Below the pieces are notes generated by a model that saw only the letters and a list, made by a program, of their open reading frames with translations, ran no database searches and was not told the origin of the DNA. A stretch of 38,518 nt of DNA from a virus (taxonomy: Duplodnaviria > Heunggongvirae > Uroviricota > Caudoviricetes): IMG/VR virus record IMGVR_UViG_2671181134_000015; one strand, written 5' to 3'. The position numbers were made by a program, and so were the translations under genes. Shown here piece by piece: positions 2,625 through 37,092 of the stretch (the stretch's first letter is position 1; every line of letters begins with the position of its first letter).

Positions 2625-3749
2625 CTAACCATTGCTTTCCTTTTCGGCTATCCACTCGGGTATTCTTGCCTCCAGTTCAAGCCTTGTGGTGAAGCCGCTT
2701 CCGTCGATATTGTGTTCCACTTTTGCAATGAGCCAGTCCTGATTGTCTATCTCGGTTTTAAAGCCGGTTACCGTGCCATGCATTTCAGGGTAAAGCTCCG
2801 CTCTGCCCCGGGCCAGCGTGATGGAGAATTCAGCCGCACCGCGCTGTAATTGCTGCCACCTGGCGGCAGCTGCGCGCTGTGCAGCAATTTCATTTGGGTA
2901 GGTTTTTCTCAGAACGAACACGTTACCTTCTGCCCCCTCCATGTAGCTGCCTTCCCGGCTGCTGCTCTTTTCAGCGTGAGTTTTTCGTTTTTTTATGTTG
3001 ACGGCTTTCTTTTTGCCATGATTCAAATCCAGCCAGTACGCCTTCACCCCTGTGTATGCCTGGCGATCGGCTATTCTGAACTGGTGACTGTCTCCGTCAC
3101 TGCGTGCCAGTGCAAATGAGGGGAGTGGGCGCCCGTCAGCTGTCACGCCGCCACCCGGCAGAATGAACAGCAGACAGCCATTTTTGACGGTAGTGATGGC
3201 TCCCAGCATATCAGCCATGCGGGTAAGGAATGATATGTCGCTTTCTTCCGTCTGGTCGGCATGATCGATTTCAATATCCATAAGCATATCGCTTATCTGG
3301 GCTTTCAGTCCGTAACGGTGGGCAATAGCGGAAACCACGCGTTCAACAGTCACGTCGTGCCAGGATACTTCCCGTTTGACGTTAAATTCCTCCCTGAAGT
3401 CTGCGCTGTTTGCACTCAGTGTCAGCCGCTCCGGAGGTCCTTCATGAGCGACCTCATCAACAATGTAGGTGCCTTTATCAACCAGAGGTTCTCCCTTCCA
3501 TCCCAGCATGACTCTGATGTGTGTTCCCCGCCCGGGGAGAGCCAGCTGCCCGTCGGCATCATCCAGCACAAGAGTGACCCTGTCTGCTTCAAACCCCCGG
3601 TTGTCTGTCATGGAAAGCGATATCACCCGGTTATTCAGTTCCTGAAGAGTGTTTTTATCCTGCTCCCTGTCCAGTGAAACGCTGAAATCAGGCATTTTCA
3701 CCAGTTCTTTCAGGGGGGAATAAACCGTGTTACCGTTCAGCAATACCAT
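2625..3749 (-). CDS. P2 gpD-like tail protein (late control gene D)
   Basis: Motifs TDNRGFEAD, EVSWHD and FSITLARGRA as recalled for P2 gpD; start set at MVLLNGN (3749) with GGAGGA RBS; the 491-aa ORF in the track over-extends into the intergenic region. Confidence 0.8.
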   Translation of the reverse strand: MVLLNGNTVYSPLKELVKMPDFSVSLDREQDKNTLQELNNRVISLSMTDNRGFEADRVTLVLDDADGQLALPGRGTHIRVMLGWKGEPLVDKGTYIVDEVAHEGPPERLTLSANSADFREEFNVKREVSWHDVTVERVVSAIAHRYGLKAQISDMLMDIEIDHADQTEESDISFLTRMADMLGAITTVKNGCLLFILPGGGVTADGRPLPSFALARSDGDSHQFRIADRQAYTGVKAYWLDLNHGKKKAVNIKKRKTHAEKSSSREGSYMEGAEGNVFVLRKTYPNEIAAQRAAAARWQQLQRGAAEFSITLARGRAELYPEMHGTVTGFKTEIDNQDWLIAKVEHNIDGSGFTTRLELEARIPEWIAEKESNG

Positions 3750-31602: not shown

Positions 31603-31985
31603 GGTGTGGCCTCTTCGTTTGTGAATTTTGAAAACTCACCAACCAGAGGTTCCAAGCTCAGGGTGGCGAGACGTACAGGGTTGGAACTACCGGCAAACGA
31701 AGAAACCGGCCCGACCGAAGTCGGCCCTGTACGCCCCGCCATAATTCTGATGCGAAAAAGACGTGGCGATACAGTACGCACAAAAAAACCGCTGGCGCGG
31801 CTGTGCGCTTCGTTTGTCAGCGGGGTTCCAATCCCGGCACCCGTTTTATGAGGTGCAGCGGAAATGTAACCCGACACGACGAGCGCTGGCAAGCGGTTTT
31901 TGTGTTGCGTGCTGATGTGGTTAGAATGTGGCGAATTAATATCACCTGGCAACTGGTGATTGTCTGCATACGCGGGGTGTTTCTG

Positions 31986-33260: not shown

Positions 33261-34235
33261 TCACGGGTGAGCAGAGGTAAACATCGCGCTGTACGTTGCA
33301 TCTCCCGTCGCCGGGCCGCAGTCCGGGCACCAGCCACCGCCATGGCGACCGCAGGTGTCGCACTGCTTCAGGGTGGCGATAACTTCCATTGCGGGTTCAC
33401 TGGTTCTTGCGCCAACGCTTCGTGGTGCCTGTATGCAGTTCATCCGGTAACCCTGATAAATGCGTCTGGTTTCCGGTGTGTCGGAATTGGAGATGGTGAT
33501 GCTGGTCATGCCGCCCGTTTCCTGTGAAAGGCGGTCAAGCGCTGCTCTCAGGCGAATGTGGTCGTCCTTCGTGAAGGGTTTTCCATAGGCGGTGAAATTG
33601 TCCCGGCCACTGAATGGCAGGTAAGGGGGATCGCAGTACACGCAAAGCGTGTTACCCATGCTGAACAGGTGGCTGGCACAGCTCAGCGTTTTTCGAAAAT
33701 CGCCATGAACAAGCAGTGTTCGGGTGCTGTTTGCCTTGTCTGCAAATGCGCGGATCTCCCGCTCAGGAAAATAATGTTTGCTGTAGCTGCCGAAAGGAAC
33801 GTTAAAATCGCCTTTTCCATTCACGCGGAACAGGCCGTTAAAACAGTGTCGGTTGAGGTACAAAAACATGGCGGCCAGTCGCAGTTTCCGACGGTCGCTT
33901 ATTCCCGTGCTCAGGAATGCATGATTCTCTGCATTAAAGGTGTTGCGGATGGCGAGATAGTCAGCCCTGTTGTTATGTTCCAGGAACAGGTCTTTTGCCT
34001 CATCGATCAGGCTGTCGGTGTTGTCCCGTGCTGCCCGCCAGAAATTAATCAGCGCACCGTTGGAATCTCCAAGGATGCAGCGGCTGTAACGGGTGTTCAT
34101 GAATACCGATGCGCCACCCACGAACGGCTCAACCAGGCAGTCAGCTTCTGGCAGGTGCGCCTTCAGTGTGTCCATGATGCGGTTTTTTCCGCCCACCCAT
34201 TTCAGCGGTGTGCCGGATAACAGTTTTTCGCTCAT
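33261..34235 (-). CDS. dam: DNA adenine methyltransferase (Dam / D12-class N6-adenine MTase) with Cys-rich C-terminal extension
   Basis: PFVGGASVF SAM-binding-like block and DPPY catalytic motif; C-terminal CDTCGRHGGGWCPDCGP cluster. Confidence 0.8.
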   Translation of the reverse strand: MSEKLLSGTPLKWVGGKNRIMDTLKAHLPEADCLVEPFVGGASVFMNTRYSRCILGDSNGALINFWRAARDNTDSLIDEAKDLFLEHNNRADYLAIRNTFNAENHAFLSTGISDRRKLRLAAMFLYLNRHCFNGLFRVNGKGDFNVPFGSYSKHYFPEREIRAFADKANSTRTLLVHGDFRKTLSCASHLFSMGNTLCVYCDPPYLPFSGRDNFTAYGKPFTKDDHIRLRAALDRLSQETGGMTSITISNSDTPETRRIYQGYRMNCIQAPRSVGARTSEPAMEVIATLKQCDTCGRHGGGWCPDCGPATGDATYSAMFTSAHP

Positions 34236-34469
34236 AACGCGGCCTCTCTGTTATAGGTTTCGTGCGTTAATAAATCCCATGACTTCCCGTTGTTTTTGCT
34301 CAGTAATCGCCAGCGAAAACCGATTCTTATGACCAGGTAGTCGTGGGGCTTTATGCGTGAAAAATTCCGCGCTCCGTTGCGAAATAAGCGCAGAGACGTG
34401 CGGGCTTTTGTTTCCACGTTCAGGGGGGGGGCGGCAACACACATTCAGGATGGCGACCATGGCTTCACC

Positions 34470-35060
34470 TCATATGTTCAGGAATGGTGTTGTGAAGCGC
34501 TGCCAGATTTCTGACACGACCTTTGCCTGGTAAACGGCATCGCCCAGTGCAGTGTGAGCAATAGCCTCCTTTCCTGATCTGCCTGGCATTTTCCATCCCG
34601 TTGACTCAGCCATGGCGATAAGCGGGCGCATACAGCGCTCGTTCCAGTAGCACCACGGAATGCTTTTTTCTCCGGCTGTGCGTGTTATGGCGGATTTCAG
34701 GATCGGGAAATCGAAGGATGCGCCCTTGCACCATATGGTCAGTGAATTGCCCGGGCTTTCGTCATGCATGTTGCGTGAAATGAACGCCAGAAATTCGGTT
34801 ACTGCCGCAAGCTCTGTTCCCTCTGCGTTGCGCAGGCAGGATCTGGCCTCCACGGATTGTCCGGCCCACCATACAGTGGTTGCTGCATTGACGGTTCCGC
34901 CGTTGCGTTCTGAATCCACCGGGTCGATGAATTGCTCAAACTGCTTGCCCAGCTTTCCGGTGAACGGGTCGAAAAACACCGCGCCAATTGCGAATATGAC
35001 GGCATCCGGTCCGGAGCCCAGTGTTTCAGTGTCAATCATGAGATGGTTCATTATGCGCAC
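34470..35060 (-). CDS. DnaQ-like 3'-5' exonuclease (DEDD family)
   Basis: MIDTETLG Exo I motif near the N-terminus, later H...D block. Confidence 0.7.
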   Translation of the reverse strand: MRIMNHLMIDTETLGSGPDAVIFAIGAVFFDPFTGKLGKQFEQFIDPVDSERNGGTVNAATTVWWAGQSVEARSCLRNAEGTELAAVTEFLAFISRNMHDESPGNSLTIWCKGASFDFPILKSAITRTAGEKSIPWCYWNERCMRPLIAMAESTGWKMPGRSGKEAIAHTALGDAVYQAKVVSEIWQRFTTPFLNI

Positions 35061-35281
35061 CCCTTCAGTTCGTCTGGGTTGGCGAGTATTGCAATCAGTC
35101 GTTCAATGGCTGCGCAGGTTTCCTGTGGACAGGTGTGTGTCTCTTTCGCTGTCTCAGTCAGCTCGCGCAGTAATTCGCAGATATGTGCACGCTCGGCTTT
35201 TCTTGCGGCCATGCTGATATGCGCATGATGGTTAGCTGGTCTGGCGGTTATTTCTCTGCCGGGTGATTCGGCTGTTCTCAT
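35051..35281 (-). CDS. Hypothetical small protein (76 aa)
   Basis: Start at MRTAE with GGAG RBS; the ORF track extends further upstream through a hairpin. Confidence 0.35.
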   Translation of the reverse strand: MRTAESPGREITARPANHHAHISMAARKAERAHICELLRELTETAKETHTCPQETCAAIERLIAILANPDELKGCA

Positions 35282-35387
35282 TTGTTGACTCCTGAAAAAA
35301 AGACAAAGGGAACCCGAAGGCATGAATGCCTTAATTAATTGCTCGTGTGTTTTCTGGTGTTATTCCGCGCCTGCTTTCGGCTTCAGG

Positions 35388-35483
35388 TTATTCCCAGATC
35401 TTCAGGGCTAACCAGATAAGCGCACTCACCTGAAATATCACCCATACAGTGGCGATGGTGTGTATTGCTTTTACATTCTTCAT
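35388..35483 (-). CDS. Small hydrophobic peptide (31 aa), unannotatable from sequence
   Basis: MKNVKAIHTIATVWVIFQVSALIWLALKIWE; no clear RBS; 12 nt after the preceding small ORF. Confidence 0.25.
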   Translation of the reverse strand: MKNVKAIHTIATVWVIFQVSALIWLALKIWE

Positions 35484-35495
35484 AAGGTTTTCGCT

Positions 35496-35621
35496 TTATT
35501 TACGGCGTTTATCGCCGGTAAAGAATAATTCGATATCCTTCAGTGTGTAGATAATTCGCATAATGCCGATTGCCATAAGCACGGAGATAATCAGAATTAC
35601 CCATGAAAGAAATATGCTCAT
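35496..35621 (-). CDS. Small hydrophobic peptide (41 aa)
   Basis: MSIFLSWVILIISVLMAIGIMRIIYTLKDIELFFTGDKRRK; ATGA overlap with the upstream gene. Confidence 0.3.
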   Translation of the reverse strand: MSIFLSWVILIISVLMAIGIMRIIYTLKDIELFFTGDKRRK

Positions 35622-35860
35622 GCGGCTACCCCTGTGAAGTAAGGCTCAACAATTTCACCTTCAAACAGTTCTGTCATAATCGACTTTAATTCTTCCAGCG
35701 CTTCACGGTCATCGCTGCCCAGTGCGCAGTTGTATAGCCCCATAATTGCGCCGCGCAGTGAGTTACGAAGGCTTTCATCCTTAGTTACGCCCCGGTTTGC
35801 GAGTTCAAAGTGATAACGTTGCAACGCGTTATTGATAAGTATTTTGTAGGCTTCGATCAT
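35618..35860 (-). CDS. Hypothetical early protein (80 aa)
   Basis: ORF in the early operon. Confidence 0.45.
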   Translation of the reverse strand: MIEAYKILINNALQRYHFELANRGVTKDESLRNSLRGAIMGLYNCALGSDDREALEELKSIMTELFEGEIVEPYFTGVAA

Positions 35861-35878
35861 GGCTGAATCCTTTATTTA

Positions 35879-36214
35879 TCAGTGCTTGCTTCCCGGATAT
35901 TGAAAACGCAGGCCGCTGATTAATCTGTCTGCCGTTCTTAAGGCTTCAAAAAATGTGAAGTCCTGTCCGAAGTAATCATCCCCGCGAGTCAGGGTGAAAT
36001 TAAATCTGCCAGTAACAGGGCTGCGAAAACTTTTGTGAATAACGATGCCAGTGTCGCCAATCGTCCAGGTGTGCTTGCCGGTTTGTTTTACCGGGTGACC
36101 GTCTGGTGTGGTATGGATTTCAGTGGTTGCGGTCGCACTATTTTTACGGAAGTGCTGGCGTGCAACGTGGCGTTCGGTGTTGTTATTGATGCGTGCATTT
36201 CGTTGTTGCTTCAT
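35879..36214 (-). CDS. Hypothetical early protein (111 aa)
   Basis: ORF in the early operon. Confidence 0.45.
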   Translation of the reverse strand: MKQQRNARINNNTERHVARQHFRKNSATATTEIHTTPDGHPVKQTGKHTWTIGDTGIVIHKSFRSPVTGRFNFTLTRGDDYFGQDFTFFEALRTADRLISGLRFQYPGSKH

Positions 36215-36239
36215 TCTTCACTCGGTCCTTATGCGATGA

Positions 36240-36434
36240 TTACAGTGATTCGTCTCTTGTCAGCCTAAAAATCACTTCAGCCATGACTTCGCTAATTACA
36301 TCGATCCCCTGATCGGTAAGGGCTTCTTTCCAGGCCTTGCTTGCACGTGTTGGATCCATCCTGCCTGATTGCTGTTGTATGATGATGAAGCGTAAATCGC
36401 TGTATAAGTCTTTTGTTTGAGTGGAGTCAGTCAT
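36240..36434 (-). CDS. Hypothetical early protein (64 aa)
   Basis: ORF in the early operon. Confidence 0.4.
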   Translation of the reverse strand: MTDSTQTKDLYSDLRFIIIQQQSGRMDPTRASKAWKEALTDQGIDVISEVMAEVIFRLTRDESL

Positions 36435-36485
36435 GTCAACACCTTCAAATCCCGATGCTCTTAATGATCCCGGTTTGTTTTGATG

Positions 36486-37010
36486 TCACTGGTTGCCTTC
36501 GCTGTATTGGTGTTGCTCCAGTTTTGACTTTCTTCCTGTGTAAACCCGCTTTCCATTGATGGTCTGGCAGTCTTCTTTGTTTGCCGGGGAAAACTTTCTT
36601 TTCTGTCGGTCGTACGTCCAGTAGCTTTTCCAGTTGTGCCATTCTGGCGGCTCGCATTCTGGTAGTTCGTCAGCCAGCTTGTCCCACTCTCTGGCGTTAA
36701 ACCACCATACGCCATCCGAATTTTCATCTTCAGGGTTTGAACGGGTCTTGTGTCCAGGCATCTGATTTCGCTGAAGCGCCACGCGCAATGCAGCTTTTGT
36801 CAACCCGATATAGGCTGCCCCTTTTTCAAGTGAGCAAAGTCCGGCTACCGGGCCATCCAGTCGCAAGGTTGCCCCTTTTTTGTAGGTGCGTTTTTTCTTT
36901 TCCTCTTGGTGTTCATCGTCGTTTTCCGCACCAACGGATTCGGTGATGCTGTCGTTTTCCTGAAGGGCTTGTGTGTCAGATAACTCTTTATCGGCAATTG
37001 ACTTCCGCAT
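36486..37010 (-). CDS. Cox/Apl-like excisionase-regulator candidate (first gene of the early operon; N-terminal extent uncertain)
   Basis: Divergent from the repressor gene; HTH-like YIGLTKAALRVALQRNQMPGHKT and W-rich block DGVWWFNAREWDKL resemble P2 Cox; the acidic N-terminal 50 aa may not be translated. Confidence 0.45.
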   Translation of the reverse strand: MRKSIADKELSDTQALQENDSITESVGAENDDEHQEEKKKRTYKKGATLRLDGPVAGLCSLEKGAAYIGLTKAALRVALQRNQMPGHKTRSNPEDENSDGVWWFNAREWDKLADELPECEPPEWHNWKSYWTYDRQKRKFSPANKEDCQTINGKRVYTGRKSKLEQHQYSEGNQ

Positions 37011-37072
37011 TTGCTATCCTCTTGCGTTGGTGCGCTTGTCGCGCATCATGAAGGTTTGTTTAGGTTTATAAA

Positions 37073-37092
37073 AGATACTCGTGCGAGTATCT
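37073..37092. promoter_or_regulatory. Perfect 9-bp inverted repeat AGATACTCG-TG-CGAGTATCT in the cox/C divergent region; candidate operator
   Basis: Lies between the divergent starts at 37010 and 37115; a second palindrome TGCGC-N5-GCGCA is at 37031-37045 and TATAAA at 37067-37072. Confidence 0.4.

Follow-up and report, generated by a model that had tools for sequence, protein, structure and literature searches.

Downstream of the DUF4754 gene in the early operon of a P2-like prophage lie two small ORFs in tandem, of 41 and 31 codons (ORF1 and ORF2), and the question that they raise is whether either is a gene and, if so, what so short a peptide would do for the phage. The window, that is, the whole stretch of viral DNA analysed here (38,518 nucleotides; IMG/VR record IMGVR_UViG_2671181134_000015), had received an initial annotation made from its letters alone, in which the two ORFs were put forward as possible membrane-active regulators, toxins or host-takeover factors. 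Both were recovered on the minus strand with exactly the coordinates and translations first given for them. The best explanation overall, with a probability of about 0.6, is that ORF1 is a translationally coupled membrane-protein gene whose product would act as a modulator, and that ORF2 is an add-on to it. The finding is a fairly ordinary one and both ORFs leave current concepts unchanged; the ORF1 family offers a clean target for the study of small phage membrane proteins and a way into the early DUF4754/DUF4761 module of P88-like phages, and ORF2 shows how difficult it is to judge the coding status of a 31-codon ORF confined to one lineage.

The prophage and its early operon

The window holds a P2-like prophage of the P88/Xuanwuvirus type (Peduoviridae), with serS (1-1293) on one flank and, in identical prophages, dmsA on the other; Ogr and gpD genes are also present. 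On the minus strand the genes follow one another in the order Cox-like, 64-aa gene, DUF4761, DUF4754, ORF1, ORF2, 76-aa gene, exonuclease, ParE-like and Dam, with the gpA replication endonuclease further on. The label of early operon is given because of the established layout of P2, in which C and Cox are divergent and gpA lies downstream, and the original placement of both ORFs in that operon is upheld by their position on the Cox side. A terminator and promoter scan of 34900-37300 found no excess of such sites interrupting the operon. The features needed below are listed here in descending order of position:

37511 onward: integrase, which with the HTH repressor lies opposite the Cox-like gene
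37115-37456, plus strand: HTH repressor, facing the Cox-like gene
36486-37010, minus strand: Cox-like gene, divergent from the HTH repressor
35879-36214, minus strand: DUF4761 gene of the early operon, after the 64-aa gene
35618-35860, minus strand: DUF4754 gene, 80 aa (Pfam PF15946, E=1e-15; called a DUF4754 family protein by PGAP in relatives)
35629-35632, minus strand: GGGG Shine-Dalgarno-like core, 7 nt upstream of the ORF1 ATG and within the DUF4754 coding sequence
35618-35621, minus strand: ATGA stop/start overlap (DUF4754 TGA 35618-35620, ORF1 ATG 35619-35621)
35496-35621, minus strand: ORF1, predicted single-pass membrane protein of 41 aa, MSIFLSWVILIISVLMAIGIMRIIYTLKDIELFFTGDKRRK (a PGAP hypothetical protein in near-identical prophages)
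35484-35495, minus strand: A-rich 12-nt spacer AGCGAAAACCTT that separates ORF1 from ORF2 and, as in the variants, lacks a Shine-Dalgarno sequence
35388-35483, minus strand: ORF2, lineage-specific candidate small membrane peptide of 31 aa, MKNVKAIHTIATVWVIFQVSALIWLALKIWE
35317-35332, minus strand: hairpin AAGGCA-UUCA-UGCCUU, an inverted repeat (AAGGCAT-TC-ATGCCTT) with effectively a 6-bp stem and a UUCA loop
35051-35281, minus strand: 76-aa gene, 3' of the hairpin, PHROG 22206 with function not assigned (match E=1e-45; PGAP annotation in the related locus L001)
34470-35060, minus strand: 3'-5' exonuclease gene of the early operon

Elsewhere in the prophage, a protein with a ParE-like toxin domain (PF24732, E=5e-18) is encoded at 34232-34444 on the minus strand, between the 3'-5' exonuclease and Dam genes, and an adjacent antitoxin gene is not obvious. 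Two near-identical tandem ORFs of 46 aa (1533-1673 and 2004-2144, both minus strand) match Pfam HOK_GEF (E=2e-6 and 5e-6); they lie between serS and the prophage Ogr gene and probably represent type I toxin cargo carried at the end of the prophage, and no Sok-type Rfam match at gathering score was found for them.

ORF1 and its coupling to the DUF4754 gene

The first ORF had been described as a single hydrophobic helix with a basic tail, and this description was borne out and found to be conserved. ORF1 ranks first for hydrophobicity among the 182 ATG-initiated ORFs of 25-60 aa in the window (best 19-residue Kyte-Doolittle window 2.75). Its TM helix is predicted at residues 3-24 (35550-35615) and its tail, YTLKDIELFFTGDKRRK, is basic; by the positive-inside rule, the short N-terminus would face the periplasm and the tail is predicted to lie in the cytoplasm. 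The TM segment is the best-conserved part of the protein and is nearly invariant (MSIF-SW--LIISV--AIGIMRII), the tail being less conserved. In 45-aa variants from P88-type phages (L010, L093, L094 and L117; P0028 and P0030), the conserved FFTGE tail has been swapped for a frameshifted one, for example RFSLANNRANKTTG, which suggests either that the tail is dispensable or that those copies are decaying.

The homologue of ORF1 in phage P88 is gp07 (YP_009113050, 37 aa), which is annotated as ‘membrane protein’, and ORF1 has the build of the gp07-like family, a hydrophobic helix of about 22 residues at the N-terminus and then a short tail with charged residues. In P88 the DUF4754 protein is gp06 and is followed by gp07 with the same 4-nt overlap; likewise, in the Xuanwuvirus phages and in Citrobacter phage phiSM the homologue occupies the same slot right after DUF4754, with the ATGA overlap and the N-terminal TM helix. 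The subfamily in the window differs in its length of 41 aa and in ending GDKRRK, where P88 gp07 ends GE, and P88 has no counterpart of ORF2. Searches with tblastn gave 66-68% identity, across the whole length of ORF1, to the P88 and phiSM homologues (E=5e-10), 11 phage records with 61-68% identity (E from 5e-10 to 1e-7) and a partial match in Chuche covering residues 1-30 (E=4e-3). Of the 14 phage records with DUF4754, 12 have ORF1 as well, and the two that lack it (phage 503458) match residues 1-52 only of DUF4754.

Among complete E. coli genomes, the ORF1 segment was found by BLASTN in 507 of 5426 (about 9%), adjoined by the DUF4754 gene throughout the matches listed. Exact-sequence look-up placed the 37-aa forms in more than 1000 contigs each, from E. 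coli, Shigella, Salmonella and E. albertii, under the UniRef name ‘Prophage membrane protein’; the family also occurs in Citrobacter prophages. A profile search of 1.84 billion representative proteins returned 13 matches, all of them members of the ORF1 family. A DUF4754 scan for relatives outside the E. coli-centred collections yielded 252 DNA-pattern stretches, none of which was confirmed, and the hairpin pattern gave none. ORF1 is therefore already deposited and annotated many times as a hypothetical protein, and its family is absent from curated libraries: no Pfam or PHROG family was found for ORF1 or ORF2 (no PHROG match below E=0.07), and in NCBIfam ORF2 was unmatched and ORF1 had two weak non-toxin matches far under the cut-offs (TIGR01218, E=0.022; PRK04561, E=0.2). 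Within the library searched, no papers were found to mention DUF4754 or the N-termini of the peptides.

By its pattern of substitution, ORF1 was shown to be a genuine protein-coding gene under purifying selection. The 135 loci compared comprise 59 DNA haplotypes and 47 protein variants; over all pairs (Nei-Gojobori), pN/pS is 0.25 in frame, as against 1.2 and 1.7 in the two other frames. Between the window and P88, pS is 0.73 and pN is 0.19.

One group of relatives carries a different peptide at this position. In L003 (NZ_CP053234, about 3376-3480, minus strand), an unannotated hydrophobic ORF of 34 aa, MSSTLIIIASWVILLASFVVSYFVVKLLTQYLNL, stands in place of ORF1, and the same type was found in three other E. 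coli genomes and in the metagenome locus L143. It is ATGA-coupled to a divergent DUF4754 and has weak but significant similarity to ORF1 (P=0.006-0.016 against shuffles), and since it is both coupled and ORF1-like, it is suggested that RefSeq misses a gene there. The DUF4754 protein of L003 as a single-protein query found nothing in viral contigs, and an alignment query found no L003-type loci.

The coupling of the first ORF to the gene upstream by an ATGA overlap, proposed in the initial annotation, was confirmed: the TGA of DUF4754 and the ATG of ORF1 overlap at 35618-35621. All 85 distinct contexts examined for ORF1 homologues show the overlap, and even the most divergent members (P0025 and P0026, 51-61% identity) keep both it and the DUF4761-DUF4754-peptide synteny. 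A GGGG, GGAG or GAGG core stands at an equal distance from the start codon in all ORF1 types. At the level of sequence, the arrangement of ORF1 was thus shown to be one of translational coupling to DUF4754, in an operon under repressor control.

The two coupled genes have diverged to different degrees. Identity to P88 is 70% for ORF1 and 41% for the neighbouring DUF4754 protein; between the window and L002, DUF4754 is 25% identical and ORF1 93%, the DNA becoming homologous again a few bases ahead of the ATG, and across pairs the identities of ORF1 and DUF4754 are uncorrelated. Comparison of the window with L002 and L011 places a sharp mosaic boundary at 35618-35625, beyond which ORF1 and everything downstream are 93-99% identical, and this sharp change in identity at the junction points to recombination at or near the ATGA overlap. 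The AF2 model of the DUF4754 protein is a three-helix bundle with a disordered C-terminal tail (pLDDT 81); the tail carries an invariant P-Y motif adjoining the junction, and Foldseek found no fold match in the PDB below E=0.7.

ORF2 and the downstream hairpin

The second ORF had been described as an amphipathic peptide, and this could not be sustained: its helix has a hydrophobic moment of 0.07 and a mean hydrophobicity of 0.67, which is of the transmembrane type. The TM-like helix covers approximately residues 9-27 (35403-35459) and follows a basic N-terminus (MKNVKAIH), so that the peptide is predicted to adopt an N-in orientation, opposite to that of ORF1. The distribution of ORF2 is narrow. 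Among 5426 E. coli genomes, only 21 contain its DNA, at an identity of at least 94.6%, and tblastn found no relatives in phage records. NCTC9112 and SCU-172 have both ORFs, and NZ_CP067426 has ORF1 alone. The exact ORF2 sequence is deposited as the hypothetical protein KGM81220.1 and in a few TPA Caudoviricetes records, and exact look-up showed all ORF2 forms, together with the L003 peptide, to be rare deposited hypothetical proteins; a word-index protein search with the concatenated ORF2 and L003 peptides returned nothing, which reflects a limit of the index and not absence. There are six ORF2 haplotypes, namely two of 31 aa (with H or L at residue 8), three of 33 aa and one of 34 aa, and scans of IMG/VR and metagenomes keyed on the downstream hairpin added loci and no haplotype beyond these six. 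The 33/34-aa form, which is that of the more divergent haplotypes, is probably ancestral. In the 34-aa form the additional codon falls within an ATA repeat, where slippage could account for the in-frame insertion.

On its sequence, ORF2 has about an even chance of being a translated and selected gene. The competing explanation, for which the odds are a little under even, is that it is a chance open frame in a lineage-specific spacer of about 150 nt between ORF1 and the hairpin, and that ORF1 alone is functional. The rarity of ORF2 fits this explanation, as do the lack of a Shine-Dalgarno sequence before it, the lack of a RefSeq annotation in any of its 21 carrier genomes, the absence of a homologue from phage records and the hundreds of genomes in which ORF1 occurs without it; its 5′ end, moreover, resembles non-coding DNA downstream of ORF1 in P88-type phages, and a 1-nt indel rewrites its last three to five residues (LKNLGII vs LKIWE). 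All six haplotypes are open and retain the ATG, but remaining stop-free is expected by chance (P=0.42 under a null in which mutations are relocated). Against a chance origin, 10 of the 19 substitution events in the first 28 codons are synonymous and nine nonsynonymous, where random relocation of the mutations gives an expectation of 5.6 synonymous (P=0.013, a test underlain by some 19 events), and the excess is confined to the ORF2 frame, with pN/pS of 0.30 in frame and of 1.4-1.6 in the other forward frames. This excess gives modest support to coding. The replacements are conservative (V/A, V/L, I/V and S/C), and the TM-grade helix is in the top 4% of small ORFs, ranking 8 of 182 for hydrophobicity in the ORF1 comparison set. 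Nonsynonymous divergence in ORF2, at about 0.14 per site, exceeds the divergence of about 0.07 per site in the adjacent downstream non-coding spacer. The conservation of the frames in relatives, which had been named as a check, holds clearly for ORF1 and weakly for ORF2; ORF1 goes beyond chance by its rank and its purifying selection, whereas the openness of ORF2 does not and its synonymous excess is modest.

Two possible origins of ORF2 were rejected. As a tandem duplicate of ORF1 it scored P=0.09-0.23 in Smith-Waterman comparison with composition-preserving shuffles, and only weak direct repeats were seen; similarity to ORF1 or gp07 as family members was likewise absent by the same type of test (P=0.09-0.73). 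Homology to the 34-aa ORF of L003, which had been suggested by MAFFT, did not survive a shuffle test (P=0.46-0.62).

The hairpin at 35317-35332 had been placed after the first ORF. The inverted repeat is real but does not directly follow ORF1: it lies 55 nt past the ORF2 stop, and the AGGAG ribosome-binding site of the 76-aa gene comes about 35 nt further on. Its sequence, AAGGCAUUCAUGCCUU, is invariant in all window-type and L003-type loci. The terminator scan made no call at 35317-35332, and the hairpin is not terminator-like; as judged by its conservation, it probably belongs to the early transcript as an RNA element. P88-type relatives (L004-L010, L148, L152 and about 67 other contexts) have UCCGC-NNNN-GCGGA in the equivalent place, about 20-35 nt upstream of the ribosome-binding site, with variable loops and a compensatory change of C-G to U-A (UCCGU-AUUA-ACGGA, 15 contexts; a G-U intermediate, 3 contexts).

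That a hairpin with compensatory changes is kept in all relatives, and that the spacer after ORF2 is better conserved than ORF2 itself, are the grounds for supposing that the conserved signal of the region is an RNA or DNA element, such as a processing site, an attenuator or an operator, rather than peptides. This is considered very improbable, since the substitutions in ORF1 are codon-periodic and frame-specific and the hairpin lies outside both ORFs. The 231-nt RNA from the ORF1 stop to the next gene, moreover, folds no better than shuffles (z=-0.14), and no Rfam family was matched at E<=1 in 34900-37300.

Possible roles in the membrane and comparison with known systems

In the explanation favoured here, ORF1 is a genuine early gene of the Cox-side lytic operon that encodes a bitopic inner-membrane protein of 41 residues. 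Its product would be made by termination-reinitiation at the ATGA, a coupling to which both sequence and conservation point, and would be expressed only after derepression, such that the ORF1 and DUF4754 proteins would appear together once the C repressor is lifted. In the membrane it may act through specific helix-helix contacts, which are proposed because the TM segment is conserved better than the tail, because frameshifted tails exist and because ORF1 retains more identity to P88 than does DUF4754 (70% vs 41%). The likeliest role would be that of a small modulator of a host, or possibly a phage, inner-membrane protein during early lytic growth, a non-specific pore-forming toxin being less favoured; the specific assignment of ORF1 as a modulator of a larger inner-membrane protein is a tentative one. 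ORF2 would be a lineage-restricted add-on between ORF1 and the hairpin. If translated, it would be made by weak reinitiation 12 nt past the ORF1 stop and would give a second TM peptide of opposite topology.

AcrZ, MgrB, SgrT, Blr and Caulobacter SidA all belong to the small regulatory inner-membrane proteins. In enterobacteria this group also includes MgtS and MgtR, which are 30-50 aa in length, have one TM helix and act by binding to a bigger protein of the membrane (PMC12648545). Such a mode of action fits the way in which the TM helix of ORF1 is conserved, namely in its specific sequence, but as an analogy only: ORF1 has no sequence relationship to such proteins and, unlike them, is phage-encoded and controlled as part of a lytic operon.

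The main rival on mechanism is that ORF1 anchors the DUF4754 protein, translated along with it, to the inner membrane, with the ATGA setting the stoichiometry and with either the tail or the juxtamembrane RII-x3-K-x-IE docking the three-helix bundle. The co-occurrence and overlap of the two genes are strict, and DUF4754 is a small helical bundle with a disordered tail and a P-Y motif beside the junction; an anchor is nevertheless considered unlikely. Recombination has broken the pair exactly at the junction (as in L002, where a 25% identical DUF4754 precedes a 93% identical ORF1), and the divergence of one protein is uncorrelated with that of the other, both of which count against co-evolution of the two as partners. 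The tail, one of the two proposed docking sites, is replaced in the 45-aa variants.

Another rival starts from the dimensions of the peptides: one of them, or both, would be a toxin of the type I sort (Hok/Ldr/Ibs/TisB-like) that poisons the membrane by depolarising it and is restrained by an antisense RNA. Type I toxins such as Hok/Gef, Ldr, Ibs, TisB, ShoB and ZorO are small hydrophobic single-helix peptides and are often prophage-borne (PMC12648545). In their length (<60 aa), their hydrophobicity, their lone TM helix and their short charged termini, the ORFs agree with what is described for such toxins (PMC12648545), and the genuine Hok/Gef genes elsewhere in the prophage make toxin cargo plausible. 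The gene organisation does not fit: ORF1 overlaps the DUF4754 stop within a polycistronic, repressor-controlled lytic operon and is no independent unit with its own promoter and structured leader, as the fold z-score of the intergenic RNA also indicates. An antisense or divergent small RNA antitoxin was not found, there being no Rfam antisense match at E<=1 and no excess of promoter-like sites over shuffles on either strand (4 vs 3.0±1.7). Toxin families of Pfam and NCBIfam (HOK_GEF, Ldr, Ibs and others) match neither ORF1 nor ORF2, though the Pfam scan does detect the true Hok/Gef ORFs. The toxin explanation is accordingly given very little weight. A role as phage holin or lysis peptides was also rejected for both ORFs, which belong to the early operon, in the interval from Cox to gpA, and not to the late lysis cassette, and have no holin-family match (no PHROG match below E=0.07).

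A bolder form of the modulator explanation, and an unlikely one at present, is that P88-like phages have in ORF1, possibly joined by ORF2, an early factor dedicated to host takeover, whose conserved TM helix would bind a particular inner-membrane machine of the host (for instance a transporter, a sensor kinase or part of the divisome) and inhibit or re-programme it. Small early or delayed-early proteins that are made on induction and block cell division include lambda Kil, Rac KilR, DicB and T7 gp0.4, which are soluble and target FtsZ or MinC. ORF1 and ORF2 are likewise small, early-operon genes, but they encode membrane helices and have no sequence similarity to these proteins. Were the takeover explanation true, a small membrane peptide from a P2-like early operon would for the first time have a function assigned to it, and ORF2 would represent a second effector of recent acquisition.

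Further small elements were noted in the same prophage. A 57-aa hydrophobic ORF in the late region (14979-15152, minus strand) matches DUF1378 (E=3e-27) and is another prophage small membrane protein. In the early region, upstream of the replication gene, Rfam gathering-level matches to the C4 antisense RNA (31659-31746, minus strand, 86 bits) and to the Hfq-binding RNA isrK (31782-31856, minus strand, 69 bits) lie side by side.
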